Positions 40,686 to 61,853 are shown, counted from the stretch's first letter. The stretch: 64,000 bases of DNA from Meyerozyma guilliermondii (GCA_051546255.1 CP128815.1:434001-498000); one strand, 5' to 3'. A program made the numbers and translations. Notes: generated by a model from the letters alone, not told the origin.

Positions 40686-42344
40686 GAAAGGCGGTTCAAG
40701 GACGAAAAGGGAAAGTCAAGAAAAGAAAGAGAAGGCATAGCTGCAGAACCTCGGGTTTAGGTGAAGCATGGAACGATATTCCGAGTGGTATTATGCACAA
40801 ATGTAAAGGGGAAAAGACAAAATGTGGATAGTGGTAGACAAGTGGTAGACAAGTAATGAAAAAATAATGAAAAATTTTTTAAAATGAAAAAATTAGAAAA
40901 ACACGGGTAAGCCTTGATTCAGTCTTGATTCCGTCACCACTGATAGTCACCTCTTCAGGTACGGGTCCTTAAGATGTTAACATACGGTCTGGGTAGTTTT
41001 TAACTAGTCCTCTCCGCAGCCACGGCACCTGCATAAAGCGGCTTCACATACTACTGGATTGCAAAGTTGACCTAAAAATAGCTGATAGTGTATGGCTCAT
41101 GGAAGAGATGGGTTCGACAAGATGAGCTAACATGATGCCTCAACAGTTAGGTAAAATCATTTGTGATTGTACAACATTGACATTTAGCCGATCATATAAG
41201 ACTATCGCATTGATGAAGAAATATGGTTGATTATTACCGAAAATCTTGAGATAAACGATGGAGTCTTGAAGATCAGGAAATAATGATTCCTCTTCCGAGT
41301 TGAAGTGAAGATTCTAGTTGATTTTTAAGAGTCAATTCCGATAAAGCTCTATACTTGTCTTAGACAGCCAAAGAGTACCAGAGAAGTTTTACCGACTTAA
41401 GCGGTTTCTCCTTTAGAGAGAATACTTCGAGGCAAGAATATAATGTCAGGTTGCAAAAAGGTAAGAGAGAACCTCCACTACAAGAACCAATGCAGGAACA
41501 AAAATAAGAAAATATGTGGTGATCGTTCAAACTGCCAACATCCTTGAAGCTAGAATAGACCAATTTGGGAATAAAGGAGTATGCTCTAAAGTTTATAATC
41601 ACTACAATTACCCCAGTGCTCTTCACAATTACTTGGAACTAAAAAATCCAGACACCCCAAGACATATATCCATTGAAATGATCAATACGTGTGTCGGGTC
41701 AGTAGTGCGCACATTTGTATAATGTCCAAAACTTTGCTAGTTAAAGCACATGCGCGCAACCGGGACTACATTGTGTATATTGTTTGAATTATGTTCACCT
41801 TGACGGATAACTAGTGTAAATCATTTTACACAACTTGAGGGTTCAAAAGCCAGCGGGAGCCCTGGGAATTCTGCAGAAGCTCAAGGGCGTTTCTGCAAAA
41901 TGTTCTCGCTCTAGCTCAAACTTGATTTACTTAGCGATATTCGTAACAATTTTCCAATTTTGCAATTTTTGAAAAATACAATTTTTATAATATAATTGAG
42001 CCCAGAGAAAAGGAAAGGGTATAGAAGAAATAGAACCCAACAAGATAGGCTGAACAATTAGGCAATATGATCATCTGCAATTGCACAACCTTGACATTCA
42101 ACCTATTATATACCTTAAATGCAGTGCGGAATACTGCTAAACAAACAAAGTTCAAAATGAGACTGAGATCGACGAAATTAGGATGCGTGATGCTACACGA
42201 TTCATACATCAAAATGTACTATTCCTCGTCGCCATACGTGAATTGAAGCCTTCTATAACATGACAATAACCTGATAACATAATAACAAGCTTAGTATTAC
42301 CTCATCATTCATGGGTTCAAAACTAGTTCAATTTTGACACAAAT

Positions 42345-42765
42345 TTTTTCAATATTGATCGGAGCGCTTCAAGATTGTAGCGGGCTAGAGAGCTCATGTG
42401 AACTAAATGGGTATTGTGCTCAATTTTGTTATACGATGATTTGCGGCTCCGGAAATTTGACATTTAGCCGCGACGACGGCTCGATCAAAACACTCAAAAT
42501 TGGTCCGGGCACTCCACAATTGTAGCGGCCGATAGAGCTCACGTGAACTAGATGGGCACTCCAGTCCATTTTGTTCTACGATGATTTGCGGCTCCGGAAA
42601 CTTGACATTTAGTCGAAAAAACGAGTTGATAAAAACTCTCAAATTGATCGGGACGCTCCAAGATTGGAGCGGCCGATAGAGTTCGGCTGACCTAGTTGGT
42701 CAATGTGACGCATGTTGTATCTTCATGTTTTGCGGCTCCGGAAAGTTGACATTTAGTCGAAATCG
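42345..42765. repeat. Three diverged tandem repeats of ~145 bp
   Basis: TGCGGCTCCGGAAAnTTGACATTTAG at 42442, 42587 and 42731; further shared blocks (ATTG.AGCGG..., AGAG.TC...GA.CTA). Confidence 0.92.
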
Positions 42766-43342
42766 GGGTCGCTTATGTCAGCTCGACCCTCATTTTAGTC
42801 AGCGAACCAAGGTCGAAACTTTATTTAGTATGGTAAATTCGTACTACAGTGCGAGGCAATACCTAGCTTTATCAGCTGTGGTCCGGTAGAAGACTGGGAC
42901 CAACGTAAGCGGGATGTTAATTATAGAAGTTAGTTGTCAGGGATTTCGAATAAGATACCACATATGTGCAGTATCTTTACTTTTAGGCTACAGAGGTTAT
43001 TTCACGGTCCGGTTCATTTGACCGTTTCCATTCTTAATCCCATTGACTTCCCCTTTTTTACGATTCTTTACTTTAGGTAGTTTTTACTTAGCTTGAGGTC
43101 TCGTAAACATGCTTTTAACAATCGATTCAGTGGAAGGTTAGAGTCAAGTTTCATATTCTCCGAAAATCTTTCAACTCTCTCAAATATTGCAAAAGACATA
43201 TATCAGAGTATAGTCTCTGGTATGAATACTCATCCTACCAAAGGTAACTGTAGTGTAAATGGCTATTGGCATTTTTAAGAGAAAAGTGGGAGGAAATTTT
43301 GATTATAGCGCGCGGCTGCAAACTTTTGCGCGCATGCATCTA

Positions 43343-43383
43343 GAAAAGTGGGACAGATTAACTGTTTATATGTCCCACTTTTC
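43343..43383. repeat. Perfect 13-bp inverted repeat GAAAAGTGGGACA / TGTCCCACTTTTC with a 15-nt spacer
   Basis: Read directly; related sites at 43281-43291 and 43431-43439. Confidence 0.9.
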
Positions 43384-45171
43384 GCGAATTTTTGGTGAGA
43401 AAATCCGAGCTACGTCACCCGAGATTGAAACTGTCCCACGCGCCAGAGGTTTGGTATGTCTCAAAAGTGCTAATTCGACTTTTAAAATTGAGGATGGGAC
43501 GACCTTTTCGATTGCCAGCCAATTATAACCCCTATGAGCTGGGAGGAGTCAGTGAACTTTAAAGACTAAAATTGTAACTCAAATGGCCTTCTCCGCATCT
43601 TCATACCTTGACTCTCCGGTGACTTATTCATAAACATATAAATATTGAGGATGGGACGACCTTTAAACTATGGTTCTGAAGCTAAAACATTTCAACTTTT
43701 ATTCATGCCCTATTCCCACCTTTTTAGACGTCTTACAGGACTGTGATTTGATAGGTGTTCAGTTTAGCTCTTGAAAGTTGGACAATTTTGATGACTTCCT
43801 TTGTTTTTGCAGATGTCAAGGTCCTAAAGTAATTCTATTTCTACTCTATCTAGAAGTTAACATTCTCAGTTTATATTGTGAGTTCTATGTTTAGAAAGAG
43901 TTGGATTTACCGCTTAACTCATGCCCAATAAGAGCCTCTATTACGGTGCTTCTTGTAATCTCAAGCAATTGTGGCTAACTACGTTTTAGTCACCGGCAAT
44001 ATCAGAATTTGCAGCCAATTTTGCGAGTACTCTACTCGAAGTTGTTGGCAGCTGTGCCACCTTTGGTACTTTCTCTGATCTACTCTTAAACTCCAGCCGA
44101 CTCCTTGAATCTCATCTGCCATGGAAGTATTGGCTTGTGACTCGAAGCTTCATTCGCACCTCGTTATCAGTTCTAGAGGGTACAATTGATTTAGGTTGTG
44201 AAATGTGGTGAAGAAGATTGCTCTGTTGAGGAGTTGAAGGAGCCCAGTTACTTCTTGGTGAGTTTCGAAGCTGTCAGTTTGGATCCTTTTTGAATTCTAA
44301 CCGCTCATCTGACTGCTTATGACAAGACCAGTGATGGGTGGTATGGAAGATACGTAAAAAGAATCATAGCTAGCAAGCTGAAATTAGTGAAGGGTACTAT
44401 AGGAGCCACTGTCGTGTAACTGTTTATTACTTTTCAAAAATAAATCACCAAATGATAATGGTCAATTTTTCAGGGTTTGCATTTTTCCAGAATTTTGTAA
44501 TTTCTCACTTCATTCAATTCATGAATCTACTTGAACATCGAATGCTGCTTTTTATTTGAGATTTCATTCAAATTGCTGGCTTAATCCCATTAGCATTCAG
44601 TTGATACATCGTATTCCTGTTTACTCACCATTGCTTTGTTACCAAAGGCTACTTTGTGCAGAGAAAAAACAGCAGAAATATCATTAATTCATTAGCTTTA
44701 AGTTAGTCGTATCTGAGCAAACTCCCTTAGATATCAAGAGATTGCCATTTTCTTTTTTTTCGAAGAGGGCCACTCTCACATTTTCGTTTCCCCTTTATTT
44801 CCTTACTTGCAAACATCAGTCATCAGAAGTTCCCTTGTACCACGTATGGCTGAATTGATGTTGCTCAACGTATGCTTTTACATCAATTTCATTTTGCACT
44901 GGCGGAACACTTGCATTTTTCACAGCAATTGCATAGTTTTGAGCGGTTTGGCGAGGTCTGGACATCCCCTTAGCACAATCTTGGAACAATAATCACGAAA
45001 GAAAAGCAGCACACTGTTCTGGAGACTATCATCATGGCTTCAAATTCAAGGTAATTTCTTGTTGTTCCAAATGGTTGCAAAGCAGTTTCTGGCCGTTAAG
45101 AATTATTCCTTTGGGCTGAAACTCAAACTGCTATTCTTTTGAGTAGGCAGCTAGAACTCTCCTTTTTTCAC

Positions 45172-46392
45172 TTATAAATAACTTGAATCGAGTAATCGGT
45201 AGGTTGCGAACACTTCAGGCGACTTGGAAACAAATTCCCGAAGAAGTTCATCGACCATTTCCTTGCTTCTTGAAGTGAATCTTTTTGTCACTCTACCACC
45301 CACCGATTCTGTTGATTCATTGAATGTGTTGATTTTCACCGATAATTGCAGTATTCTAAGTCCCTTTATGACTCGATAAAGCTCAAGAAGGTCCACTTGC
45401 AGAAAACCCTTTACAATCGGGGTGGTAAGCGATGAAATCCTCACATATTCAACCGTACATCGATGGAGCAGAATGTACTGTCTTTCTCTGGGACACTTTA
45501 CCCACTTACACGATTCAATATGGTTAAACTCTTCGATCAAAAGCGGAACTGTTTCAATACCGACGCCAAGTATACATGGTCTACCATCGGGGTAATTTGG
45601 GGGATCTCGGGATGGACGGACTTTTCCATTGCTCAAAGGAAGGTGGATAACTCTAGAATGAACGTTTTGCGTATTATCGATAGTCGGGGAGATTTGCGTA
45701 TTGTCGATAATTGTGGAGATTCGCATATTGTCGATAGCTGGGGAGATTTGCGGATTTTCGATAGCTGGCCGGCTTTGGACATCATGGTCAATAGTTGGCG
45801 AGATTTGCGTATTTTTGATAGCTGGGGAGATTCGCGTATCATCGATAATTGTGGAAATCTGCATATTTTCGATAGCTGGCCGGCTTTGGGCACAATGATC
45901 AATAGTTGGCGAGATTTGCGTATTGTCGATAGCTGGGGAGAATTGCGGATTTTCGATAGTTGGGGAGCTTTGCGTATCACAGTCAATAGCTTGCGGGCTT
46001 TGGGTATTATGGTCAATAGCTGGTGGGGTATCATCATCAATAGCTTGTGGGCTTTGTGTACCAACTTCGATTGGCGAGTTTTGCGTACTATTTTTAATTG
46101 GCAAGATTTGCGTAGTTGGCAGGCTTTGCTTTTGATTCATCATAGATTTGATTGTTTCAACAAGTTCTCTATGATTTTCTTCTTGGACTCTCATAGTTTC
46201 TTCATGAATCCACATAGTTTCTTCATAGTACCTCTTAGTTTCTTCATGGATTCTCCTAGTTTCTTCTCGGTACTTCCTAATTTCTTCGCAAAAAGCATGA
46301 ATGCTTTTGCTCCTCTCTTCGTATTCCGCCTCAATCGTACCGTGTCTTCGACGTTTCCTTTTTTGAATTGTATCATTAATGTGATCCGTCAT
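45172..46392 (-). CDS. GCR1_C-domain putative DNA-binding protein, copy A: coiled coil, internal repeats, GCR1_C
   Basis: C-terminal GIETVPLLIEEF....KW....ERQY....R..VEYV.....VDLLELYR...L...QLS.KI resembles the Gcr1/Msn1/Hot1/Ndc10 C-terminal domain; paralog at 58909. Confidence 0.7.
   Translation of the reverse strand: MTDHINDTIQKRKRRRHGTIEAEYEERSKSIHAFCEEIRKYREETRRIHEETKRYYEETMWIHEETMRVQEENHRELVETIKSMMNQKQSLPTTQILPIKNSTQNSPIEVGTQSPQAIDDDTPPAIDHNTQSPQAIDCDTQSSPTIENPQFSPAIDNTQISPTIDHCAQSRPAIENMQISTIIDDTRISPAIKNTQISPTIDHDVQSRPAIENPQISPAIDNMRISTIIDNTQISPTIDNTQNVHSRVIHLPLSNGKVRPSRDPPNYPDGRPCILGVGIETVPLLIEEFNHIESCKWVKCPRERQYILLHRCTVEYVRISSLTTPIVKGFLQVDLLELYRVIKGLRILQLSVKINTFNESTESVGGRVTKRFTSRSKEMVDELLREFVSKSPEVFATYRLLDSSYL
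45670..46070 (-). repeat. Coding minisatellite of 27-30 bp units (ISPAIDNTQ-like)
   Basis: Recurrent gatagctggggagatttgcg / tcgataattgtgg units. Confidence 0.9.
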
Positions 46393-47077
46393 TTCCCTTA
46401 TCAAGAAATTAATTAATTTCGCGTTTTAATGGTTGCAAATTATTGATCCGAAATCCCAGCTTGCATGCATGACGAAAATGAAGTCTTGAGATATTCAACA
46501 AGGTCAATGGATATTTAGGGAATTCTTAAAAGGCCATTGAAGCCTTCGTAGGCAATAATTGCACATTTAGAATCGATACACTCTTAGGTATTTTAAGAGT
46601 TATTAGTTTTCCTTGAGTTAATAACTAGTTTTCGATTTCTATCCTGATCCGAGATCAGAAACGAACTATTGCCTTGTAATTTAACTGGCTGATACAGTAG
46701 TTGGTAATTGTATGATTGTTTCTTGTCATAAGTTGAGAGCCTAGCATCGCATTTCTTTGGTGAACACTCAATTTCTTATACAAATGTCCAATTTAAGGAA
46801 GATTGCACGAGTACAATGCATAGTTTATCCTCACAATAGCCCGAGACCTTCGCTAACTATCCCATTGTTCAATGAAATAAGCCTTCCGTAAGCATTTATT
46901 TTTAGCACTCGCGAAATAGGCCATCGTACTTCAACCACCACCAAATAATATTAGGCGTTATCACAACAGATAAAACACCATGTGGGTGACCTCGCGGCTA
47001 AATAGGGATTTCTGTAGCGTATATAAAACGGGAGTATTGCAGATTTATAGTAGTTTTAAGTTTTACTCAATTGCAAT

Positions 47078-47449
47078 ATGTGGCCCAATATAGTAGCGTT
47101 GGAAGTGGGTTGTGGGGCAACCCGCACAACTTACACCACTTTTGACTTGAATCTGACTTTAGATGCATACTACTGTGGGCAAAAACAGACTTTTTATTCC
47201 ATGAAAAAAAAGTTGAAGAATGCGAGACTTACAGACGCTGAGATAACTGAGACCGGGTTGGTCTTGAAGTGTGGGGAAGGGTTTCAAAATTTAACCACAT
47301 TCAACTACAATCTGACTTTGAATGCATCGTATTGTGGGGGACAAGAGGGTGAGTACTTGGCAAAGCGCCAGTCAAATGCGGGGAGTGGTAGAGATGTTAA
47401 ACTTGCTTGGATTTGTCTTGTAGTTGTTGCTGCTACTTTGGTTCTTTGA
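47078..47449 (+). CDS. Novel small Cys-loop surface-type protein, family 1 copy 1 (two loops plus hydrophobic C-terminal tail)
   Basis: TATATAAAA about 55 bp upstream; 2 x CG-x-TTF.(Y/L)NSTL.A.YCG; GPI-like tail. Confidence 0.75.
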   Translation: MWPNIVALEVGCGATRTTYTTFDLNLTLDAYYCGQKQTFYSMKKKLKNARLTDAEITETGLVLKCGEGFQNLTTFNYNLTLNASYCGGQEGEYLAKRQSNAGSGRDVKLAWICLVVVAATLVL

Positions 47450-48029
47450 GTCTACTGAACTAGCTAAAAATGATCAATTTCGCTTCATTATGCGTGAGTA
47501 GAACCTTGACATGAGTTTACGAGCTTAATTGCATTGCATTACATAAAATTTACGAGGTTGAAAATTAGTGCAAATAGCCCAAGAAAAGCTGGTTCAGAAC
47601 TGAAAATGAGAATGTAATAGAACGATGTATAGTAGTTTATCCTCATATAGTCCGCGTGCGTCGCTGACTATCAGTTGTGCAAATATTTTTTAGGCACTCG
47701 CGCCATTTTATTTTCAGTCGATAACTAAATTAGTGGAGATGATGAATGTGAGAGTCTGTAAAGAACTTAGATCTAGCTGCTTCAATAGGCATCTGACCCT
47801 ATGAGAAGAGTAAGGGCCAATAAGTCAATAAGACAAGATACCAAGAATGCTTCTAGGGTAATTGTAGGATACCTTTTGATTAAATATGAAGATTTTCATC
47901 AAATTTGACTTTGGAAATTCCGTAACTGTCACTCCAACAAATAATACCGGATCCTCGAATGTTAGAGAGGGCTTATAGCTCATATAAATAGGCACTATTT
48001 TCATTTTTGTTTAACTCAAGTTCATTTCC

Positions 48030-48218
48030 ATTGACACGAGATGTGGGGAAGAATGGACTCATACCTACAACACTTTTTAACTACAATCTGGCTTTATCAG
48101 CATAAAACTGTGGGAAAGCAAGAGAATATACGAGTCCATGCACCCCAAGTGTAGCACGGCGAGTCGCAGAGATGCTAAATTTGGCTGAATTTGTCTTATT
48201 ATTAAGATAGTCCTCTGA
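48030..48218 (+). pseudogene. Degenerate family 1 copy
   Basis: tgtggggaa...acttttt aactacaatctg...gca TAA aactgtggg...gatgctaaatttggctgaatttgtctt; contains a stop and a frameshift. Confidence 0.7.
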
Positions 48219-48467
48219 GCCTATGTTTCACTAGCCATCGACAAAAATCATCTGCTGAAACCAAAATCGTGATTCATGGCTAAATTAGTTGCGCACCATA
48301 CGGTTACGATATCAATTTGCAGCCAATTCGCACTCGCTTAAAGATGCCATTTATTTTACGTTGGTGCCGTGCGAGTTCACTAAATAATATCAAGTAGTGG
48401 CTTTTATCTCTTATATAAAATGGGCATTATCTAAATTTTTAGTAGTTTCACTCAATAATTTCACAAT

Positions 48468-48863
48468 ATGTCCAATTTCTGGCCCCAAATGATAGAGTTG
48501 CAAGTGGGTTGTGGGGCAACCCGCACAACGTACACCACTTTTGATTACAATCTGACTGTAGATGCATACTATTGTGCGCAAAAAGATACTTTTTATTCCC
48601 AGAAAGACAAGAAGAAACGCAAACTCCCTGCAGTTCTCTCAGGTGCTACGATAACTGAGGAGGGCGAGTTGTTCTTGCAGTGTGGAGAAAATTCGAACCA
48701 AACGTACACCACTTTTAACTACAATCTGACTTTAAATGCATCCTATTGTGGAGGTCAGCAAGGTGAGTACGTGGTAAGCCGCCAGTCAAGCTCGGCAAGT
48801 GGTAAAGATGCTAAATTTGCTTGGATTTGTGTTATACTTTTTGCTGTTTACTTGGTGGTTTGA
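48468..48863 (+). CDS. Family 1 copy 2 (two Cys loops plus hydrophobic tail)
   Basis: Clear paralog of 47078; TATATAAAA upstream. Confidence 0.75.
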   Translation: MSNFWPQMIELQVGCGATRTTYTTFDYNLTVDAYYCAQKDTFYSQKDKKKRKLPAVLSGATITEEGELFLQCGENSNQTYTTFNYNLTLNASYCGGQQGEYVVSRQSSSASGKDAKFAWICVILFAVYLVV

Positions 48864-49412
48864 GAGTGAATTTTCTTAGCCGAAAATGATCATTTGTGAT
48901 TTGACATTAACATTGAATTCGCAATGGACTCTTCCACATCATGCGTGATAACATTGCTTTACGTGTTTAAGAAAATGAAAGGATTACTAGCATTTCCAAA
49001 GTTGAAAGCCCAAAGAAAAGTTTTCGAGATTGTAATTTCTGATTAGAACAATGCATAATAATTTTCACGTAGTCAGTGAGCTTCGCTGAATATGCAATTA
49101 TTTCTCCGGCACTCGATATCTATATTTAGTGCCGTTGTTAAGGTGGAGAGTCTGCACCAGAGCCTAATCTTTGCTTAGATAAGGTATCAGACCTTGAAAG
49201 AAGCAGTTAAGGCTAATACGTTTCCTTAGGACAAGGATGCCAAGACAAGAGTTAATGCCTCTAGGCTTATTGTGAGATATCCTCTAACTAGATATGGAAA
49301 TAAAACCACATTATCCCAACTGTCACTCCGACCTACTATTAATTTAGGATCATGATAGAGGGCTTAAATCTCATATAAAATAGGCATTACTTTGAATTTT
49401 CTCAAGTGTAAT

Positions 49413-49642
49413 ATGACCCCGTGTCAATCAGCGGTACCTGAGAACGGGCTGCACTTGGATTGTGGCGCACAGAACCTAACGATATACACTTTTGACTACA
49501 ATTGGACTATGGGTGCATAATATTGTGGGTTATACAGGGTGAGTACGAGGCAAAGCACCGCAAGTCAAACGGGGCGAGTCTTAGAGATACTAAATTGTCT
49601 TGGATTTGTCTTGTAATTCTAGCTGTTAACTTTGTCCTTTAA
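49413..49642 (+). pseudogene. Family 1 single-loop copy, disrupted
   Basis: Homologous to 51694; Tyr codon replaced by TAA in the AYYCG motif, followed by a 1-nt frameshift. Confidence 0.8.
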
Positions 49643-50166: not shown

Positions 50167-50915
50167 ATGCCCTATTATGCAATTATCAACGGTAGAGTGA
50201 CAGGAGTCTTACTGAACTGGCAAGATTGCAAAAATTCCGTCTTGGGATACAGCAATTCATGGTTCAGAAAGTTCGAAACAGAGGATGAAGCATGGGATTT
50301 TTTATGGAAAATCAGTCAGATTCATATTCGGATTCAGATTCATAAGAAAGTTACCTGTTAGGCTATGACGGAAGTGATTATTCCGTCACAAAGTCTGACG
50401 ACGAAGATGACGAAATCGAACATATCTACATTGATGGAGCTTGTAGAGGAAACGGAATGTATGATCGTCCTGAATCTGGATATGGTGTCTTTTATGGAGA
50501 TGGAGATGAGCGGAATGTTGCTGTTGCCTTATCAAGTGTTGATGATATACCAGGAACGAGCCAAAGAGCAGAATTGCACGCATTGGACCATGCTGTCTCC
50601 AATATTGCCGATTTCTTAGATGAATATAATCCAGATAAGGAGTATGTCATCCATACCGACTCGCAATACGTCATCAAGGCTACTACGGTCTGGATCAAGA
50701 AATGGAAGTCCAATGGCTGGACTACATCTTATGGGAAATCTGTGGCTAATCAAGACCTCATAAAAAGAATATTTTCGAACTTGAACCGTATCAATAAGGA
50801 ACTTGAAGACAACGGCTTTTCTGCGGTAAAGCTTGAACACGTTGCTGGCCATTCCGGAGACTACGGAAATGAAATGGCAGATCAATTGGCCAACGAGGGA
50901 GCTGACATGGATTAA
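50167..50915 (+). pseudogene. RNase H1 gene (one hybrid-binding domain plus RNase H domain), disrupted
   Basis: YYAI.NGR.TGV..NW.DCK..V.GY....FRKF.T..EA..F; IYIDGACRGNG, TSQRAEL, IHTDSQY, HVAGHSG..GNE.AD.LA; frame break near 50300 and TAA at 50343-50345. Confidence 0.85.
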
Positions 50916-51693: not shown

Positions 51694-51921
51694 ATGTCCC
51701 TGTGGCAACCAGAGGTACCGGGAGAGTTGCACTTGGATTGCGGGTGGGAGAACTTGACGGTATACAATTATGACTACAATTGGACTATGGGTGCATACTA
51801 TTGTGGGATATATAGGGGTGAGTATGAGAGAGATCACCGCAAGTCAGACGCGGCGAGCCTTAGAAGTGTAAAATTTGGTTGGATTTGTCTTGTAATTCTT
51901 GCTGTTACTGTAGTGCTTTGA
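51694..51921 (+). CDS. Family 1 copy 3 (single Cys loop plus hydrophobic tail)
   Basis: LDCGWENLTVYNYDYNWTMGAYYCG...GEY...KFGWICLVILAVTVVL. Confidence 0.65.
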   Translation: MSLWQPEVPGELHLDCGWENLTVYNYDYNWTMGAYYCGIYRGEYERDHRKSDAASLRSVKFGWICLVILAVTVVL

Positions 51922-51924
51922 GTC

Positions 51925-53220
51925 TACGAGCTACGATGTGAAATGCAAGACATGTTCTTTTACCGTATCCTGGACGTTTTGGATCAAAAGATAACTTGAT
52001 ATGGTAGTATAGAAGTCATATATAAATTTAGGACAGTATTTAACGGTAAGTCTCTTATAAATGTTTACTTATTGACCTTTAATAGGAGTTCATTTTAAGC
52101 AAACAGCGAAAGAAATTCTGACTTTTGGCAACTAATTTACTTTACAATTGATGAGGCGGTTCATTTTGGTCTTGCATGATCGGGATAATACAAACGGAGG
52201 CCCAGTAATGTGCCTCAACTCTAACTTCTCGAGTCTGTCGAAAATAGTGCGAGCTTTGACAAGTACGTGAGAAGAGAAAGAATAAGAAACAGTATAAGGA
52301 AGATCGAGAGAATGAAGGGAAAGTATAAGAGATGAAGTAGAAAGGGTAGCAGAATCAGTAGGCTGAACCTTTAGAGGCTTCCACTTTCTTTCGGTTTAGC
52401 TGTATATATTTACTTAGAAACTGAGTTTCGCAGCCACCTCTAATTTGGACAAAGATTTGACTGAACAAACTATGGCGACTCTGGGTTGCCTGAATAAAGA
52501 AAGCTTTCTTAGAAAAATTCAAAAAAAAAAACGACTCCAGAAGGAATGGCCTGAGGAGGAATGCCCTGATGTCGAAACGAGTATAATACCGTATTTAATC
52601 TTTTTTGGTATGTCGATGGGTTTGATCAGTATTTTAAGAGGGGTACATGAGCTAAGGGTTTCCCGTGAGCCATTAAAACTTATCCTCAGGTTCCTTCGTG
52701 TTGCTACGTGCGTTGTTGCGTGCGTTGTGACATGTTGCATCACTTTCAATTACTTCAGCCCATCATGGAAGATAACTATATCTGGAATTATCGATGTATT
52801 ACTCCACCAAGACTATGCAACTTTTGTTTTAGTTTGGGTATTAATTTTGATATTAACCCTATCAGCTCCACCCCGGAAGATCACAGAGGGAAAGGATGAA
52901 ATAAAAAACGAAAAGGATGAAATCAAAAACGAAAAGGATGCAATCAAAAAGGAATATGTTGAGGTATAATTACTTTGTGTTTAGAATGACTAGAAATGGT
53001 GGATCACCGTTCATGTTTTCTCGTTTTCGTCTTTAGTAATGTATGTTTGACCCACGTACTGTTTATCAGAAAGAAGAGATAGAGCAGAGAGTTTAAGGAA
53101 AATTGAGAGAATGAAGTAATCGGAAAGTATAAGGAAATTGAGAATAGATAGCAGAATCAGTTATCTCAGCGTCATTTTCAGGTTCTTTGACCTTCGGAAG
53201 CTTCCACTTTCTTTCGCGGC
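51925..53220. repeat. Segmental duplication; partner at ~56166-57895 carries a solo LTR
   Basis: Collinear shared sequence from acgagctacgatgt to ttccactttctttcgc. Confidence 0.9.
52472..52969 (+). CDS. Novel small multi-TM protein, family 2 copy 1
   Basis: About 3 hydrophobic segments, L.VSREPLKLILRF motif, KDEIKNE repeats; first ATG at 52472. Confidence 0.7.
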   Translation: MATLGCLNKESFLRKIQKKKRLQKEWPEEECPDVETSIIPYLIFFGMSMGLISILRGVHELRVSREPLKLILRFLRVATCVVACVVTCCITFNYFSPSWKITISGIIDVLLHQDYATFVLVWVLILILTLSAPPRKITEGKDEIKNEKDEIKNEKDAIKKEYVEV

Positions 53221-53294
53221 TCTAGGTTGGCAGATTACTTGCTGTATACGTTTACTTAAAACCCGAGTTTCGCAGCGCACCTAAAGGAAGAAAA

Positions 53295-53612
53295 ATGCTT
53301 GAAGTTGTGAGGGCAATCTTGACTGAAGAAGCTATGGAAGACGACATGCTGAAGTTGAAGACAGTGCACTTTTATACTATTATATTGTTTTGTTTTAGCT
53401 GGGTAGCACTTCTGGCTGATGAAATGATTGGAGGATATGCCTGGTTGTGTTGTGTGGCGATTCATGTGATCTGTACTGCTACATGGTTAAACATTGTAAA
53501 AGCTTCCCCTCGATATGAGGATCCATGGTGTATGATATATAGCTTATCTTGTCTTATTTGGTGGCTTCTGTCATGTTATGGGGTTTACGATATCTACTGC
53601 CAAGCAGAGTAA
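53295..53612 (+). CDS. Small 3-TM protein, possibly a distant member of family 2
   Basis: Hydrophobic 105-aa ORF behind the same purine-rich promoter block as 52472 and 57124. Confidence 0.55.
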   Translation: MLEVVRAILTEEAMEDDMLKLKTVHFYTIILFCFSWVALLADEMIGGYAWLCCVAIHVICTATWLNIVKASPRYEDPWCMIYSLSCLIWWLLSCYGVYDIYCQAE

Positions 53613-54222
53613 TACAACTACAAAGATTCTTCGTTACATCGTTCAGTACTTATATTTGCAGCTAGTCAGTGAATTGATATGTTTATGTTTAGTATTTGTA
53701 TTTTTCGTACTGTTTGTTTGAAATAGCATAGCTTTCTATTTGGTTGCAAATTCAGCCGCGCGCGGCTCGATAAGAGGCTGCATACATACGAAGTAGTGGC
53801 TTTTACCAGCCAAATTGTACACCAGTACACCAAAGGGTTCCTTATGACCGACCTTTTCACGGTATCACTCTAGAGCTCTTAATACTTTAAGAAAGTGATG
53901 CCAATGAACAATTTCGAGACATGATATCCAAGTATGCTGCTTCTAGGATTTAGGTGATAAAAGACCATTGATCGTAGCTTTTGTTGATGGTATATGTAGG
54001 ATTTCCCGGATTTAGTGTTATATGCAGTGCATATGACTGCTAAAATGTGGTACATCATCAACCCCCATTTGATAAGGAGGGTGACCTCTGACCCGCATGC
54101 TGCAGATACGGTGGCAAAAGTGGTGGCAACCCCGCTTTGCCAAGCTATAAATATGGGACCCATTCCAGGGGATAAATTCCAATCCTTTATCACATTAATA
54201 CTTCTGTAATTTTTGATCAGAA

Positions 54223-54672
54223 ATGGAAAATACGTCCAGACGTCAATGGGAAGAAATGACCGTAATTGAGCCCGGAACTACACCCGGAACTACACCGGAA
54301 GCTGGGCCCGATTCTTCATTTTATTGGAGAAAGCTGCCATTCGGGATTATTTTATTACTTCTTATATGGCCAAAGTTGTTCCCTACTTACTTCGATGAAG
54401 AGATCGAGGCTCCGCGTGGACTCGATATTTCTTGTTTTCTCTGGTGTGCGATGCTTACTACCGACCAGTTTGGGGCCCTACAAGTTTCCTTTGAACGTGA
54501 GTCATTAAAAAAAATATCATACAGATTATTTTCTTTGGCTACGTGCTTGTGTATATCGTACTACTTCCACGAGAGGGCATTTGATTCACCTGTTGATACT
54601 AGATATGATGTTTACGCTTCATGTCGAGATGTGATTATTCCCTTTATCATGAAGCATGCTGAGTTATGGTAA
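54223..54672 (+). CDS. Family 2 copy (MENT-type)
   Basis: ALQVSFERESLKKI..RLFSLATC motif; flanks shared with the 55535 unit. Confidence 0.65.
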   Translation: MENTSRRQWEEMTVIEPGTTPGTTPEAGPDSSFYWRKLPFGIILLLLIWPKLFPTYFDEEIEAPRGLDISCFLWCAMLTTDQFGALQVSFERESLKKISYRLFSLATCLCISYYFHERAFDSPVDTRYDVYASCRDVIIPFIMKHAELW

Positions 54673-55534
54673 CTTTGCGTTTGAAATGGCTAGAAATGAC
54701 TTGAAATGAGTGGATCTCCGTTCATTTCCATCGCTAAAATTGGGTATCAAACATTTGCTCTCCTTAGTTTAAACATGTTTTTTTGATTAATATATGTTTG
54801 ACCCACTTACCGTTCGTCTCAATCAGACTAAAAACCGACAAAGATCAAATCCGAGGCTGCACGAATATGCATATGGAGGGCTTCAAAAGATCAGCAAGGT
54901 CTAGAACTGTATTTGCGACATATTTGGTGGTCATTCTTCATGCATGTTGTGCATTTGGGTAGCGACCCTCCCCCCGCCCTTCCCGCATAAATGCAGAAGC
55001 ATAGTTTTTCGGACTAGAAGTAAATTCTAGGTTTCTCAAGCAACTTAAAGGTACTCAGAAGTCACCACCGAATGTTAAGATTGAAAGATATCTCATAAAA
55101 ATCATCAAAGATTGGCGAACTTAACAAGCCTATTTAGTGCAAGGCGCGGCTCGCTAAGCTCACACGATACGAGCTGCATGCATATTCAACTGCGAGATGA
55201 CGTAAGGGGCACATCCGAAAGGGAGAGGGTGTACATGTAACACCAAAAGATTCGCCACTACGTTTACGACCGGACCTTTTCACAGTGTAGTATAATCATT
55301 CTAGTTGCTCTTAAATACTTGAAGCAAGTGCGATTAATGAAAATTATTTCGATTCATAATATTTCAAGTATTTTGCTTTTAATATTTCAGGTGAATTGCA
55401 TGAATAGTTGCAGGGGTTGTCCCTTCGAAGCATGCAATGCCATGCAGCCGTTCGATTTGCATTTTGATCTGGACACGATCTACATATAAAAGACCATTGA
55501 TCGCAGCTCCCTCTTGTAATTTATTTGAACACAA

Positions 55535-55939
55535 ATGGAAAATACGACTACAACAACAAGGGCCATGACTCTGAATAACTGGAGAGCAGAGTTGAAAGCA
55601 ACGCTGATACTGCTTGCAGAAAAATGTCGTAAAACAGTTCGTGAAGAAAATCGTCTACACCAGAAGGCATCCCCTGGTGTCGGCATAAGAAGGGATAGAG
55701 CTCCGGATTATATCTGGTTTGGTACCTTAGTCATTTGTGTGATATATTTTGCAAGACGGGTGGATGCCTTAATCGTTTCCTATCGACGTGAGGAGCCATT
55801 AGAAAATGTTATGTCCAACTTTTTTTCCGTTGTTGTGTGCATTATTACATGTTATCTCGTTTACGTTTACTGCTACCTAGTTATAGAATCCATCTATATC
55901 CGGTACATTCAGCTGCTCGAATTATTAGCAATTTGGTAG
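55535..55939 (+). CDS. Family 2 copy (MENT-type)
   Basis: ALIVSYRREEPLENVMSNFFSVVVC; 3' flank ~55969-56125 nearly identical to ~54671-54825. Confidence 0.65.
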   Translation: MENTTTTTRAMTLNNWRAELKATLILLAEKCRKTVREENRLHQKASPGVGIRRDRAPDYIWFGTLVICVIYFARRVDALIVSYRREEPLENVMSNFFSVVVCIITCYLVYVYCYLVIESIYIRYIQLLELLAIW

Positions 55940-56537
55940 CTGACACGTGAAAGAATGCTGAGTTATAATAACTTTGTGTTTGAAATGGCTAGAAATGACT
56001 TGAAATGAGTGGATCTCCGTTCATTTCCTTCGCTAAAAATGTGGGTATCAAACATTTGCTCTCCTTAGTTTAAATATGTTTTCTGATTAATATATGTTTG
56101 ACCCACGTACTGTTCATCACAATCAGAACGAAGAATTGTAGGCTTGTCAAATCATTGCAATACTCACGAGCTACGATGTATGCAAGACAAGTTCTTTTTG
56201 CCTTATCCTGGACGTTTTGCATCAGAAGTTAGATCATTAAGTTGGTATGGTAGTATAGAATTCATATTCAAATTTTAGGACACCTATTTTATGGTAAGTC
56301 TCTTGTAAGTGTTTACTTATTGATTTCTAATAGATTTACAAGTTGGCTAGACTTATTCAGATATAAGCAAACAACGGAAAGAAAAACAGACTTCTGGCAA
56401 CTAATTTTCTTTACAATTGACCGGCAATTCTTTTAGGTTTTGCATAATCGGGATCCGGATCCAAATACGAACGGAGGCCCAGTAATGTGCCGCAACTCGG
56501 TAACTTCTCGAGTCTGCCGAAAGTAGTGCGAGCTCTG

Positions 56538-56877
56538 TGTTGGATTATTGGCAGATTACGTGATGATATCCTTCACCGTGGGTGTAGTGTTGTGTGAGCT
56601 ATCTGGAATTTACACTAGCACTATATTGGTGATATAATGTCTTCCTTAATTAGGTATCCGATCCCTAATTATCGATCGAAATCCTGCTGGAATCAACCGT
56701 ATTGTCCTTTAGATATTATATTAGTTTACTATCCTAATTAATAGATCTAAATTCTTCGCTTAAAATTCCATATTGGGAATTCTCTTCCCTTTATAGAGCC
56801 AGGAGCCATTATCCGGCGATACTGCCCTTATGGAGTATAACGTTGATTATCTAATAGAACTCCTGCTTAGTTCAACA
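56538..56877. mobile_element. Solo LTR, 340 bp
   Basis: TGTTG...CAACA ends; 5-bp TSD CTCTG at 56533-56537 and 56878-56882; absent from the paralogous site near 52255. Confidence 0.92.
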
Positions 56878-57123
56878 CTCTGTCTATCACGTAAGAGGAG
56901 AGTAAGTAAGAGAGAATAGAACAGAAAGTTTAAGAAAAATTGAGAGATTGAAGGAAATGGAAAGAATAAGAAATTAAGTACAAGAGATATCAGAATCAGT
57001 AGGCTGAACCTTCGATAGAGGCTTCCACTTTCTTTCGGTTTGGCAGATTACTAGCTAGAGCTAACTTAAAAACTGAGCTTCGCAGCCACCTCTAATTTGG
57101 ACAAAGATTTGACTAAACAAACT

Positions 57124-57600
57124 ATGGCGACTCCGGGTTGCCTGAAGAAAGAAAAAGCTCGTGAAAAATGGCTAAAAAAACAGAAAGGATCCCCTGATGA
57201 AAAAATAAGAGCGAATAAACACAATTCTTATTTCTGGTCCGGTTGTGCATTGTTTGTGATATGTGTAAGAGGGGTGCGTGCCCTATGGGTTTCCCGTGAG
57301 CCATTAAAACTTATCCTCAGGTTTATTCGTGTTGTTGTGTGCGTTGTTGCGTGCGTTGTGATATGTTGCACCGCTTTCAATTACTTCAGCCCATCATGGA
57401 AGATAACTCTATCTGGAATTATCGATGTATTACTCCACCTAGAATATTCAACTCGTGCTGATATTTTTCAATTTATTAGTATATCAATCCTATTAACTCC
57501 ACCCCCGAAGAGCACAGAGGAAAAGGATGAAATCAAAAACGAAAAGAATGAAATCAAAAACGAAAAGGATGCAATCAAAAAGGAATATGCTGAGGTATAA
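57124..57600 (+). CDS. Family 2 copy, close paralog of 52472
   Basis: Shares VSREPLKLILRF, FNYFSPSWKIT.SGIIDVLLH and KDEIKNE-type repeats. Confidence 0.7.
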   Translation: MATPGCLKKEKAREKWLKKQKGSPDEKIRANKHNSYFWSGCALFVICVRGVRALWVSREPLKLILRFIRVVVCVVACVVICCTAFNYFSPSWKITLSGIIDVLLHLEYSTRADIFQFISISILLTPPPKSTEEKDEIKNEKNEIKNEKDAIKKEYAEV

Positions 57601-58002
57601 TTACTCTGTGTTTAGAATGATTTGAAATGTGAGGTTCATCGTTCATTTTTTTGCTGTAAGCTGCTCTCATAAGTTTGTGGCTATCGCTTATTTCTCGTTT
57701 TCGTCTTTAGTAATGTATGTTTTTCCCACGTACTGTTCATCAGAAAGAAGAGATAGACCAGAAAGTTTAAGGAAAATTGAGAGAATGAAGTAATCGGAAA
57801 GTATAAGGAAATTGAGAAAAGATAGCAGAATCAGTCATCTCAGCGTCATTTTCAGGTTCTTTGACCTTCGGAAGGTTCCACTTTCTTTCGCAGCGCACCC
57901 CATTATGACAAGTTGCGGCCGACTACTTTATTGAGCTTCCAAATAATTTGCAGCCAATTTCGCAGTACTGCACTCGAAGTTGAAGGCTCTTGCACCTTTT
58001 TC

Positions 58003-58416
58003 TGTTAGAATATGCAGAACCTCGACATGTTGCATATGTAGGATCGAGTGAAGATCGGTGGAGCTGACCTTCGCCGATCCCAAGGCGGTTGCTAGCATGA
58101 AGGGCTGTTTGGAGCATATTACCCCTCACGGGAAAGCCTATATAAGGAGGTGCCACCAGCGGTAAAGAGCACGGTTTGAACGAGAGAAATATCGTATATC
58201 CCTAGCTAGGAAATATATACGATTGATGAACGAGATACTAGAATAAGTTGCAGCTATTCTAGGTTAATCTCTACTGCCACACACAACCACACTCACGTGA
58301 GAACATTGTTTATAGTCTGGCCTACGCAGAGTCACCAGACCCATAGTGACCCAAAGCGGAAGTCTTTTACCAATATACTACACCTGTATATTGGCCCCAG
58401 AAATTCTAGTTTAACA
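58003..58416 (+). mobile_element. Solo LTR, 414 bp, from a different family
   Basis: TGTTA...TAACA ends; 5-bp TSD TTTTC at 57998-58002 and 58417-58421; internal TATATAA near 58139. Confidence 0.88.
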
Positions 58417-58767
58417 TTTTCTGGCTCTTGGAATTAGCTCTGTAGTTGTTAGTGCTCGTGGAGTCCAGTCACATTAGTCTTATATGCTACTGGTTTAGCT
58501 TGGAATGGGAGCTTTTCTCCTTACCTAAAAGTGATTTTACGTTAAAGCCGCGCATATAGTTGCAAAAAGAGGACGGATTTAAGGTTGCAAAATAAGACGA
58601 CTCCCGGAAATAAGTATGGATATTTGGGTGAAAAATAGTGAGAATTTATTCGTGTTTTGAGGCTGATGACAATTTGAACACGAGTAAATTCAACCTGGAA
58701 ACTATCCAGCCAGTATAGTATACCGTACACTTACATTACACACTCTCTACATATACACTTAATATAC

Positions 58768-58830
58768 ACTTATACCAGTAACTTATACCAGTAACTTATA
58801 CCAGTGAATTATACCGGTACACTTGTACCA
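58768..58830. repeat. 13-bp tandem repeat ACTTATACCAGTA, about 4.5 copies
   Basis: Read directly. Confidence 0.9.
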
Positions 58831-58908
58831 CGTTCACTGATACTCTGCTGGAAATGATTGAAACTTCTACGTTTTCTTTTTCAGCCAATTGTCAAGGGAC
58901 GCCTCGCT

Positions 58909-59817
58909 TTACTCCAAATTCTCAATTCTAGAGCGTTTACTTTCTCTCAAACTCAATTCCAATCCGTACCTGGACGATATGGTAATAAAGTCCCGAAGAA
59001 GATCATCAACCTTTTCCTTGCTTGTGAGATTGAAATTTCTTCTCTTTCTACCACCAGCAGTTTCCGTTTCGTCACTGAATGATTTGATCTTGGTCGACAA
59101 TTGAGTCATTGTAAGTCCCTGTTTGTCTCTATAAAGTTCAAGTAGGTCCACTTGTCCAAACTCCTTTGCAAGAGGTTCACTCTTAGAAAGCCTGAGATAT
59201 TCAACGGTGGGCCGTCGGCGCATGAGGTATTGTCTCTCTTTGGCAGACTTTGCCCACTTACATGAGTCAATAAGGTTAAACTCTTCGATCAAAAGTGGAA
59301 CTGTTTTTATGCCTTTACCAAGTATACGTGGTCTGCCATTGAAATTTGGGGGACTTTGTGGTAAGCAAGCTCTTCCATTGCTCGAACCACGAGGAGGGTG
59401 TATCACTCTAGGATGCTCAATTTGCGTATCGATAGTTGGGGAGCTTGTTTCATGGTCAATAGCTGAGGAGCTTTGGGTATTGTCGATAGCTGGGGAGATT
59501 TGAATGTTATGGTCTATAGCTGGTGGGCTTTGAGTACTAACTTCAATTGGGGAGATTTGCGTACTGTCTTCAATTGGCGTTTGCGTAGTTTGCAGGCTTT
59601 GCTTCAGTCGCCATTGATTTATAAAGTCACTCATCATATGTTCGAGTTTCGTAAGTTTGTCCATTAGAGCCGTTAATTTCTCGTCCATAGCATTAATTTT
59701 CTCGTTCATATCACCAATTCGTTCGCAAGTCGCATCAATGCTTCTGTTCAACTTTTCGAATTCCGCCTCATACATATCGTCTCTTCGCAGTTTCCTTTCT
59801 TGCGACAAATCTCTCAT
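58909..59817 (-). CDS. GCR1_C-domain putative DNA-binding protein, copy B
   Basis: GIKTVPLLIEEF...KWAKSAKERQYLMRRR..VEYL...VDLLELYRDKQGLTMTQLS; N-terminal coiled coil; paralog of 45172. Confidence 0.72.
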   Translation of the reverse strand: MRDLSQERKLRRDDMYEAEFEKLNRSIDATCERIGDMNEKINAMDEKLTALMDKLTKLEHMMSDFINQWRLKQSLQTTQTPIEDSTQISPIEVSTQSPPAIDHNIQISPAIDNTQSSSAIDHETSSPTIDTQIEHPRVIHPPRGSSNGRACLPQSPPNFNGRPRILGKGIKTVPLLIEEFNLIDSCKWAKSAKERQYLMRRRPTVEYLRLSKSEPLAKEFGQVDLLELYRDKQGLTMTQLSTKIKSFSDETETAGGRKRRNFNLTSKEKVDDLLRDFITISSRYGLELSLRESKRSRIENLE

Positions 59818-60875
59818 ATGGTTTGTCTTCTCTCATATCAAGATTAATTAGTTTCGCGTTGATAATTTGCGAATTATTTTTTAATTCATAAGAAGTCAAA
59901 GTTGGTGAAATGGAAAATCAAGAGCGCGAAAAATTTGAGCACTGGGCTTGAACAAGTTCCTGAGCTTCAACGGCAGTCACTTTTGCAACTTGATCTTAAG
60001 GAGCCACTTTCCAAGTATTAACAACATTTTTCGGCAACAATTGCACATTTAGAATCGAGACACTCATACGTTTAAGAGCTTTCGCTTTTCTTGAGTAAAT
60101 TAGATAGCCAATTTTCGTTTTCTCTGATTTTCGTATAATAGCCAAGAGCCCTGTGAAAAGATCTCGATGTGGTTGATCTAACCTTTCATCTCGATCAATT
60201 CCCTAACGTCTCCATCAGCACTGTAATCATTTCCTCTAGAAAGAAGCCAAACTGTTGCTTTCAGTTAGTTTTTTTGTGGCTTGAGCGAAGACGTTGAGAA
60301 ACTTAATTCTTCCTTGTTGAGTCCATCAGGTAGTTAGACTTATTGAATGAGCTAGTTTCTCATCATTCCGGTTTGTGTCACAAAATCTTGGTGGTGATGG
60401 AAACAAAACCATCATTTTGAGTACTCTTCAGCTTCTATAATCATTTGAATTCTACTGGGGCTGCTTCGATTTCATAGTTGGTTTCAAATCCAATAATTAT
60501 TATTTTGAAATTTTGCAACCAATGATAAAAATACAAACCAGATTGCTTTAAGTAAGTCAGATTTTGAATGTCGCAAGAGGATAGTGGCCCGTTCATGCCA
60601 AGTCGACTAGAGAAGCGAGAAAAGTGATCTGATATAATCAGCTCATACGAGAACGGGTCACTACTCAAAGGTGGAAAGTTAATATCAACAATCTGTTTTC
60701 GCAATTCACATCCATTCACCAACGGACGTAGATCAAACCACTTCTTCGCACTGGTAAAGACACATCGGAGGTTATATCGCAGAATTATAATGTTAATCCC
60801 TACATAGATCTAGTTGTTACATTGTTGGATGACCTGTTGTCACTCTTTATTCATTTAGTTCTTTGATAGCTCGCT

Positions 60876-61547
60876 ATGAAGCTCAATTATGCAAAACCAT
60901 TATTGTTCTTAATTTTCAGTTGGTTTGTACTTGCGATTGACACACAGATTTACTTGAAAAGAGCCAATGATTCATGTCAATTGATTCCAGTTTTATACAA
61001 AGGTCGATTTTTACAGTACAATTGCCCTGGAGAGACACATTATATGCTTGCTGATGAAGAATTTATTGCATTAAGTAACATCACCAAAAATGTTCCCGAA
61101 CGGTTAACATTACTGAACGGAACGATTTTCAACTACAAGAAACAGCACTCGAATCGAAATTACACTCACCAACTAATTCGTTTCATTGACTATGCAACCG
61201 CTCACATTAAGCAAGTGAGTCTCAATATTGCAAATTACTTTCAGCTTCGAACAAAACCGTGTCAGATAAACCAAAAAATGGCCACCAGTAAGGATGGCAG
61301 CAAATATTTGCATATTCTGGTTGAAGCTACCAAAACCTGTGATAAGCTGGCACAAATTTCCGCAATTCTAGAATCCATGGAAGAGTGGTTAAAAAATCAC
61401 GAACATTATTGCGGTATATGGTGTACTCGTGAATCCGATAAAGGGACTTGGGCAGGGTTGATTCTGATTGGACTGAATAAAGCTTTTTCGTTGGAGTCGT
61501 GTGGTAATTATGGGACATATGGACAATGTGAAGAAACTAACGGTTGA
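60876..61547 (+). CDS. Secreted Cys-containing protein, CSS2/KHR1 killer-toxin-like C-terminus
   Basis: Signal peptide, KR site, N-glycosylation sequons; TCDKSAQISAI...YCGIWC.R.SDKGTWAG.I.IG...CG pattern (CUG=Ser). Confidence 0.65.
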   Translation: MKLNYAKPLLFLIFSWFVLAIDTQIYLKRANDSCQLIPVLYKGRFLQYNCPGETHYMLADEEFIALSNITKNVPERLTLLNGTIFNYKKQHSNRNYTHQLIRFIDYATAHIKQVSLNIANYFQLRTKPCQINQKMATSKDGSKYLHILVEATKTCDKLAQISAILESMEEWLKNHEHYCGIWCTRESDKGTWAGLILIGLNKAFSLESCGNYGTYGQCEETNG

Positions 61548-61853
61548 GTATGAAAATCAAAAGAAGGATACTAGAAACGCTGGCTCCAACTGAAACTTAG
61601 CATGCTTCAAAATAAATCTAGAAATATAGGAACGACTGCATCAGTTTTATTAGTCAGATTGCTCTCTAATTTCTTGCGTAAATTTCAAAGAAAGAAAGAA
61701 ACCATTTCGTAGTCATAGTGCGATTCATTTACGGTGTTTGCTGAGTCCTTATGGTTTCCGCAGCCACGGCACCTGCACACAAGCGGTTCCAGAGTTTCCG
61801 GATGTCACCCACGTCGCGGCCGATTTCCGACCATTTCCTCTACCATTCCGACC

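Follow-up and report, generated by a model that had tools for sequence, protein, structure and literature searches.

The window analysed here, a 64,000-nucleotide stretch of Meyerozyma guilliermondii (G000:C1:434001-498000, from a genome of 10.66 Mb on 8 contigs that was read with genetic code table 12, CTG=Ser), contains an island of about 21 kb between an alpha-pheromone-precursor-like gene and a BAR-SH3 gene. We found that the island is a birth-and-death hotspot gathering duplicated pieces from elsewhere in the genome, and that one of its families of small membrane proteins, family B, is under positive selection for amino-acid change, a signal that is clearest in subfamily I and in a short loop, loop 1. 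By analogy with the DUP240/KTD1 proteins of Saccharomyces cerevisiae, family B may be an anti-toxin repertoire, and a toxin-like gene at the edge of the island, T, may be a mere neighbour; we put the probability of this combined reading at roughly 40%. The remaining genes of the island are labelled A1-A3 (family A), G1 and G2 (GCR1_C-like) and RNH (an RNase H1 pseudogene).

Positive selection on family B

Family B is represented in the island by five plus-strand genes: B1 (52472..52969, 165 aa), which leads a block at 52271-56347, B2 (53295..53612, 105 aa), B3 (54223..54672, 149 aa), B4 (55535..55939, 134 aa), and B5 (57124..57600, 158 aa), a local duplicate of the B1 unit. B2 belongs to subfamily I and the other four to subfamily II. 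Using the GY94 codon model on 11 non-overlapping family B pairs with at least 48% protein identity, with codons within three of a gap dropped, we obtained a pooled ratio of nonsynonymous to synonymous substitution rates (dN/dS) of 1.74 (likelihood-ratio test (LRT) 23.3, p 1.4e-6). None of these pairs fell below 1.0, and 5 of the 11 were significant alone. With the most extreme pair left out the ratio was 1.53 (p 4e-4). Site counts point the same way, with differences at 494 of 2498 0-fold sites and 34 of 324 4-fold sites (Fisher p 3e-5).

The island copies have relatives in an array on contig C5. Compared with their C5 counterparts, B2 has a dN/dS of 4.0 (p 0.021) and B3 of 2.2 (p 0.024); B4 compared with the gene at C5:1055.9 kb gives 2.6 (p 0.021), and B5 compared with B1 gives 2.35 (p 0.019). 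Simple counting yields lower ratios, with intervals that touch 1 for B3 and for the B1-B5 pair. Four of the five spacers in the duplicated block differ by 0.056-0.086, against a dN of 0.18-0.42 for B2-B4. Within the protein, loop 1 has the highest 0-fold divergence (54/219, against 1/31 at 4-fold sites), and helix 1 is also among the most changed parts.

A high ratio could also be an artefact of alignment, mutation bias or synonymous constraint in an island and a family that are mostly dispensable debris. As would be expected under this explanation, many copies are pseudogenes or split, duplicated sequence makes up half of the island and each gene offers few 4-fold sites. We nevertheless consider it very unlikely, as 46 of the 51 family B frames in the genome are near full-length open reading frames (ORFs), the exclusion of gap-near codons guards the alignment, six codon models agree on a pooled ratio of 1.69-1.80, and non-coding DNA read as codons gives only 0.72-0.84. 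Spacer divergence in the duplicated block is as low as 4-fold divergence, and the choice of pairs by protein identity biases dN/dS downward. For subfamily I, where the signal is clear (278/1538 0-fold against 11/190 4-fold differences), the explanation is largely refuted.

The initial annotation had asked for dN/dS within the families and had named neutral evolution as a reason to abandon the idea of a conflict locus. Family B departs from neutrality in the direction of positive selection; the other families do not rise above 1. T compared with its paralogue on C3 (0.33) and the G pair (0.60) are under purifying selection, and family A (0.58, p 0.10) leans the same way without reaching significance. 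In all pairs from A, T, G and RNase H, 0-fold divergence is below 4-fold divergence.

Size, anatomy and range of family B

In the 457 kb of the genome that were covered, a fixed 20-member profile recovered 51 family B frames at E<=1e-3, 31 of them outside the profile, at 13 loci on 7 of the 8 contigs. This count is a lower bound, since the loci were found with three subfamily II queries, and it leaves out a weaker frame at C3:860 kb and one frame at E 0.049. None of the ORFs read needs an intron. The core of the protein contains a charged N-tail, three hydrophobic segments, a loop 1 of about 12 residues that ends in I-P-x-Y-x-W, and a basic second loop; B1, B4 and B5 have lost the first hydrophobic segment. 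Based on charge and the positive-inside rule, loop 1 is predicted to face the lumen or the outside, with the N-tail in the cytosol.

The largest array lies at G000:C5:1049-1071 kb (L035-L037, L052) and holds 15 frames; some copies are split or inverted, and a sugar-transporter-like gene lies among them. At two chromosome ends, G000:C3:1-3 kb and C8:436-439 kb (L093, L088), family B clusters adjoin contig-end tandem repeats. The cluster at C5:59-61 kb adjoins an RTA1-family gene (L085:2594-3466).

Subfamilies I and II, with 22 and 24 genes, are homologous (hhalign 98%) and well separated (support 100/99). Both are present at 13 of 13 loci (p 0.008, or p 0.07 when the way in which the loci were detected is taken into account), and they alternate at 24 of 33 neighbour pairs (permutation p 0.009), in loci that are non-independent through joint duplication of I-II blocks. 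A predicted complex of B2 and B3 scored 0.00 in a run without alignments, which speaks neither in favour of a pairing nor against it. Such an arrangement of two separated homologous subfamilies could reflect a selfish poison-antidote system, in which genes of the two subfamilies work as linked pairs that spread in clusters. Many family B N-tails contain several in-frame Met codons, and positive selection, chimeras and dispersed clusters would fit such a system too. We regard it as quite improbable, given the conditioned value for co-occurrence, the duplication of I-II blocks as units, and the absence of wtf homology or a PY motif from family B. In addition, B1 is found on 39 public contigs and B2 on 2, so that this locus may commonly carry a subfamily II gene without a subfamily I partner.

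These public-contig counts were made on proteins clustered at 90%, with contigs that cannot be equated with strains and genes called by different programs. On this measure B3 and B4 occur on 2 contigs each and B5 on 1, which suggests that B2-B5, together with G1, may be restricted to few strains. Chimeric alleles also exist (P0037, P0062), and P0037, a B1/B5 chimera, fits recombination between repeated units. The protein clusters therefore suggest that strains differ by gain and loss of family B copies and by recombination among them. A profile search of 1.84 billion representatives returned 46 family B clusters, and 44 of the 45 compared match frames of this genome at 29-100%. Among 10 distant clusters looked up, 2 carry names, both M. 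guilliermondii. Proteins that NCBI assigns to this species recur in the genome at 98-99%, hence the use of table 12. No description of family B was found in the open-access literature, nor was any paper on the two named family B tags, PGUG_03371 and PGUG_04076, or on PGUG_00269 or PGUG_00270.

Positive selection and strain-level copy variation would also be expected if family B (or A) served self/non-self or mate recognition at the cell surface, and the position of the island next to a pheromone-precursor-like gene would then have a reason. This appears highly improbable, because 12 of the 13 family B loci lie elsewhere, among neighbours that are ordinary genes (ORFs of at least 90 aa in 15 stretches of 10 kb), and because the exposed loop has only about 12 residues. 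Another pressure, such as a virus, a plasmid, a predator, or a host immune or chemical attack on the membrane, is a somewhat better candidate, though still an unlikely one. The selection data do not name the antagonist, and one cluster adjoins the RTA1-family gene mentioned above, yet one such neighbour among 13 loci is weak evidence.

The island is a patchwork of duplicated pieces

The initial annotation had described about 21 kb of lineage-specific-looking DNA beside the pheromone gene, with same-strand arrays of two small-protein families and pseudogenes. The island and its arrays were recovered. Between the flanking genes the GC content is 39.3%, compared with 46.6% in window bases 1-40000, and intact coding sequence accounts for 5,946 of 20,901 bases. 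On the minus strand, G1 and G2 bracket the plus-strand arrays of family A (three intact, two broken) and family B (five genes). The left flank (39724..40392, minus strand) contains four 16-aa KKNSRFLTYWFFQPIM repeats; its designation as alpha-pheromone-precursor-like (MFalpha) follows the initial annotation, and Pfam gave no confirmation on the part scanned. The right flank (61854..63629, plus strand) was assigned to the BAR-SH3 gene by domain match. No Rfam family was found in 39500-62000 and no tRNA gene in the window.

The content is not specific to the island. In a genome-internal comparison that covered 457 kb, window included, at least 9,819 of the 20,901 island bases match other parts of the same genome. 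One piece is the block at 52271-56347, comprising B1-B4 and their spacers, which corresponds in identical order to G000:C5:1052777-1056643 at 69-81%. The B5 unit (56166-57894) duplicates the B1 unit (51926-53220) locally, with 77-79% nucleotide identity.

We also found three components that were missing from the earlier inventory. The first is RNH (50167..50915, plus strand), which matches Cauli_VI (E 4.6e-15) and RNase_H (E 8e-24) and has a frame break and an in-frame stop in the linker. It is a copy, with 69% nucleotide identity, of one unit in the RNase H1 array at G000:C1:131-135 kb, and the similarity extends into the upstream flank. That tandem array consists of three intact genes and one decayed copy. 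The second is a decayed fragment (44861..45029) with 78% nucleotide identity to the last part of a gene for 1060 aa at G000:C6:741-744 kb, presumably an MTR4-like helicase.

The third is a dispersed non-coding repeat (41627..44283) with three 145-bp tandem units (42349-42782), a palindrome GAAAAGTGGGAC...GTCCCACTTTTC (43343-43383) and a 19-mer. Copies are found at G000:C6:751.8-753.6 kb (84% over 1.8 kb) and C8:238 kb (86% over 0.94 kb), and the core recurs at C1:433.8 kb, C1:539 kb and C6:756 kb. The 19-mer recurs at 9 genomic sites, which fall on 3 of the 8 contigs, two of them with several each. A non-autonomous mobile element or an array of binding sites might each account for the repeat; centromeric DNA is a less likely identity. 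We considered the ORF-free region at 40.7-45.1 kb as a centromere and gave this low odds, as the distribution of the 19-mer misfits one site per chromosome. The centromeres of M. guilliermondii are described as unmapped in PMC2997560 and PMC3649674. Two copies of the repeat lie downstream of GCR1_C-like genes, namely G1 and the gene at C1:539 kb.

Gene T, a probable neighbour and not a partner of the arrays

T (60876..61547, plus strand) lies beyond G2, outside the bracket. It encodes 223 aa with 8 Cys, a hydrophobic N-terminal stretch at residues 9-25 according to a simple hydropathy scan rather than a trained predictor, and a C-terminal domain that matches DUF6736 / PF20521 (CSS2 C-terminal) at residues 108-205 (33.2 bits, cut-off 27). 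One relative carries the database name "Secreted protein CSS2 C-terminal". The killer toxin Klus is homologous to CSS2 (YFR020W), itself of no known function, according to section 2.8 of PMC13211469. No paper on DUF6736, PF20521 or IPR046624 was found in the open-access literature. The genome has 6 copies of DUF6736 at 4 loci, including a T paralogue at G000:C3:58.4 kb (47%). Gene pairs with the domain are located at G000:C8:313-315 kb and C1:1647-1650 kb, and one of the C8 copies has an internal stop.

The structure model of T has a pLDDT of 54 and ends in a helix-strand-strand-helix-strand-strand domain. In this low-confidence model, residues 108-203 resemble generic alpha/beta folds (Z up to 8.4, rmsd 2.5, 74 aligned residues). 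Foldseek with the same model gave nothing at E<=0.001 against the pdb and viral sets, and SMKT and KP4 were absent from the best 50 matches of a wide fold search. A sequence search of the PDB with T gave 0 matches. Metagenome scans with T and with A3 found no locus, in a resource from which near-identical genomes may be left out.

T resembles the CSS2/Klus/KHR family in being secreted-type and Cys-rich and in passing PF20521. The low-confidence model has an alpha/beta C-terminal domain of compatible order, with no fold match to SMKT or KP4 obtained. Section 2.8.2 of PMC13211469 describes the processing of Klus and KHR into alpha and beta chains by cleavage at no fewer than three dibasic Kex2 sites. 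Set against this published description, T has a single KR at residues 28-29, just past the signal, and no internal KR or RR sites. On public contigs, T is full-length on 18, starts at an internal Met on 14 and is reduced to a 76-aa piece on 32, with a separate downstream 89-aa piece on 38. Differences between T alleles are clustered in the C-terminal domain. The killer-toxin-like gene of the initial annotation thus holds as a secreted-type CSS2/DUF6736 gene at the edge of the island, but it has no Klus-type processing sites and is truncated on many contigs. T is a predicted CSS2-family secreted protein, independently duplicated and distantly Klus-like, and is possibly a weak or conditional antifungal; "killer toxin" would be a name drawn from family membership.

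Is T the toxin to which nearby small proteins, most plausibly family A, provide immunity or act as decoys? The link from T through CSS2 to Klus, the restriction of family A to the island, its extracellular-type features, and the clustering of T allele differences in the C-terminal domain are all consistent with this. We give it little credence, because no family A or B gene was found in the 20-30 kb covered around each of the 3 other DUF6736 loci, family A is 9-14 kb from T, past the B block and G2, and T has one dibasic site where Klus and KHR have three or more. Family A also shows no positive selection. In addition, T is truncated on 32 contigs and A2, A3 and B1 are intact on 39-53, although strains that no longer produce a toxin may retain immunity to it, which keeps this from being conclusive.

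Family B is not linked to T-like genes elsewhere in the genome. None of its 12 other loci is near a DUF6736 gene, the shortest distance being 55 kb, on C3. No small ORF of secreted, Cys-rich type was seen in a simple hydropathy listing of 116 ORFs of at least 90 aa in 15 stretches of 10 kb around these loci. Under uniform placement, the chance that a DUF6736 locus lies within 10 kb of some B locus is about 11%. In the 46-gene tree, the sister of B2, of B3 and of B1/B5 is in each case a gene of the C5 array, with full support, and B4 falls in the same clade with weaker support. The B genes were therefore acquired together, and their diversification did not take place next to T.

The dedicated toxin and immunity locus of the initial annotation is not supported by this distribution. 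The families are scattered in the genome without linkage to the toxin-like gene, family B at 13 loci, G with 3 further relatives and DUF6736 at 4 loci. What does survive, on stronger evidence than the initial annotation had, is the idea of birth-and-death membrane proteins in conflict, which applies to family B by virtue of its positive selection, as a genome-wide family and not as one local to T. T is most likely a neighbour of the B genes and not their target, and only family A, confined to the island, is a possible local partner of T. The island illustrates how toxin-like, membrane and regulator-like genes can become neighbours without forming a system.

Families A and G

Family A comprises A1 (47078..47449, 123 aa), A2 (48468..48863, 131 aa) and A3 (51694..51921, 75 aa), all on the plus strand along with two pseudogenes. 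A1 has two Cys-Gly...Tyr-Cys repeats, 4 N-glycosylation sequons and a C-terminal hydrophobic tail; A2 has the same layout and is 63-67% identical, and A3 has one repeat and the tail. Pseudogene 1 (48024..48212) has stops, frame breaks and no start codon, and pseudogene 2 (49413..49642) has one stop and one frame break. No match to family A outside the island was found in the genome (5 of 5 matches are local), and the 8 database matches among 273 candidates are all allele-like. Clusters of A1, A2 and A3 are present on 53, 53 and 45 public contigs, and intact 76-aa proteins closely similar to pseudogene 2 on 20. Chimeric alleles exist, and one-repeat and two-repeat forms coexist.

By eye and hydropathy, family A proteins have Cys-paired repeats, 2-4 sequons and a C-terminal tail like that of glycosylphosphatidylinositol (GPI)-anchored proteins. 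The hallmarks of GPI-anchored proteins are an N-terminal signal and a C-terminal hydrophobic tail that follows small residues and a polar spacer. Family A has the tail, the small residues and the spacer but no signal peptide, and a hydropathy scan found no hydrophobic N-terminus. The start codons look genuine, with frames closed 3-6 codons upstream and a TATA-like box 56-58 nt before the ATG in A1 and A2. The structure model of A2 has a pLDDT of only 42, and the ESM Atlas gave no top match above 0.82 for A2 or for the family B protein P0099.

G1 (45172..46392, minus strand, 406 aa) has a coiled-coil-like N-terminus, 9-aa repeats and a divergent GCR1_C-like C-terminus. Its paralogue G2 (58909..59817, minus strand, 302 aa) is 53% identical. 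Pfam GCR1_C (PF12550) gave no match for G1 or G2, whole or C-terminal part. Instead, both align to a relative at G000:C1:539 kb (L033 frame; hhalign 91%, E 9.5e-7, 82 columns), which itself passes the GCR1_C cut-off (28 bits, cut-off 23). A recombinase domain was not seen in G1 or G2. In that relative (L007/L033), the domain frame has no start codon of its own and was apparently split from an upstream 89-aa ORF.

Of the two GCR1_C genes proposed to bracket the arrays, what stands is a related pair in the bracketing position, with the GCR1_C link passing through the C1:539 kb relative. Judged by this alignment, G1 and G2 most likely encode divergent GCR1_C-type DNA-binding proteins. The further suggestion that they are the locus' own regulators is not supported, as no tie to the arrays emerged. 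The G1 cluster is on 3 public contigs and that of G2 on 43. Near-identical pieces of G2 and RNH, P0019 and P0158 (KAJ9097906.1 and KAJ9097907.1), come from an assembly under the name Naganishia cerealis, where their locus tags follow one another, and are probably Meyerozyma DNA within it.

Proposed role of family B and comparison with known systems

M. guilliermondii is a biocontrol agent and an opportunistic pathogen. We propose that family B, with at least about 50 small membrane proteins across the genome and five of them in the island, would form a polymorphic defence repertoire in secretory or endocytic membranes, where it would intercept incoming protein toxins of other yeasts. Each copy may have its own specificity, set by loop 1.

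Several results weigh against this proposal. Positive selection fits any conflict. B1 compared with its C5 counterpart has a dN/dS of 0.62, with an upstream flank that has diverged by 0.275, and subfamily II alone is not significant (216/960 0-fold against 23/134 4-fold differences, p 0.18). Of the regions compared in seven uncorrected tests with few 4-fold sites, loop 1 and helix 2 are nominally significant. PY motifs are present in 0 of 46 family B proteins. No sequence homology to DUP240 was found, and Pfam, with DUP and WTF included, contains no family that fits 20 members (E<=0.05) and 40 relatives (E<=0.001). A genome search for PF00674 gave no match, and its control gave no signal either. 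The DUP240 analogy is also narrow, because only KTD1 among the DUP240 genes is reported to be needed for defence against K28 (bioRxiv 10.64898/2026.08.07.743514).

Even so, an anti-toxin repertoire of the DUP240/KTD1 kind is the reading we prefer. In KTD1, selection is described in the helices and a luminal linker, and its authors raise the speculative idea of innate immunity directed at killer toxins (PMC9974470). Like DUP240 proteins, which form a family that expands and contracts, family B proteins are small multi-copy membrane proteins with copy-number and allele variation, spread over 13 loci with chimeric alleles, and selection acts in helices and a short loop that would be luminal, judging from charge. 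They differ in having a three-helix core rather than two helices, about 50 copies rather than ten, two subfamilies in mixed clusters, and a dN/dS that exceeds 1 over the whole gene, where in DUP240/KTD1 ten codons are under selection.

The wtf genes of fission yeasts are a dispersed, fast-evolving family of multi-pass membrane poison-antidote proteins with variable N-tails and chimeric alleles. Family B is likewise dispersed, fast-evolving and multi-pass, with chimeric alleles, but it has no homology to wtf and no PY motifs, is much shorter and needs no intron, and its two separate subfamilies contrast with the two isoforms of one wtf gene. We know of no poison-antidote pairs in CTG-clade yeasts. 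An alternative that we consider doubtful is that family B would be a convergently evolved two-component membrane repertoire diversifying in an arms race, with linked I/II pairs at 13 or more loci that act either as anti-toxin receptors or as poison-antidote pairs. In the receptor version it would resemble innate immunity, with no relation to DUP240 and five times its size.

A published precedent is a table of tandem duplicates, in which 12 of 901 Candida-clade clusters have a dN/dS above 1 (Fitzpatrick et al. 2010, PMC2880306). Cluster 375 in this table is a species-specific C. guilliermondii pair, PGUG_00269/PGUG_00270, with a dN/dS of 2.83 (PMC2880306). This pair may be B1/B5, given the low gene number, the NCBI records of B1 and B5 (B3 and B4 were not found there as exact sequences) and the dN/dS of 2.35 obtained here. 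The cluster 375 entry differs from family B as described here in being limited to two genes, for which the table gives neither a family nor a membrane prediction nor a function, and PGUG_03371 and PGUG_04076 are not in it.

About 50 genes with a whole-gene dN/dS above 1, which is rare in the Candida clade, point to an unrecognised conflict. They also make the idea of diversified anti-toxin membrane repertoires, put forward for KTD1, testable in a second, unrelated family of short genes.

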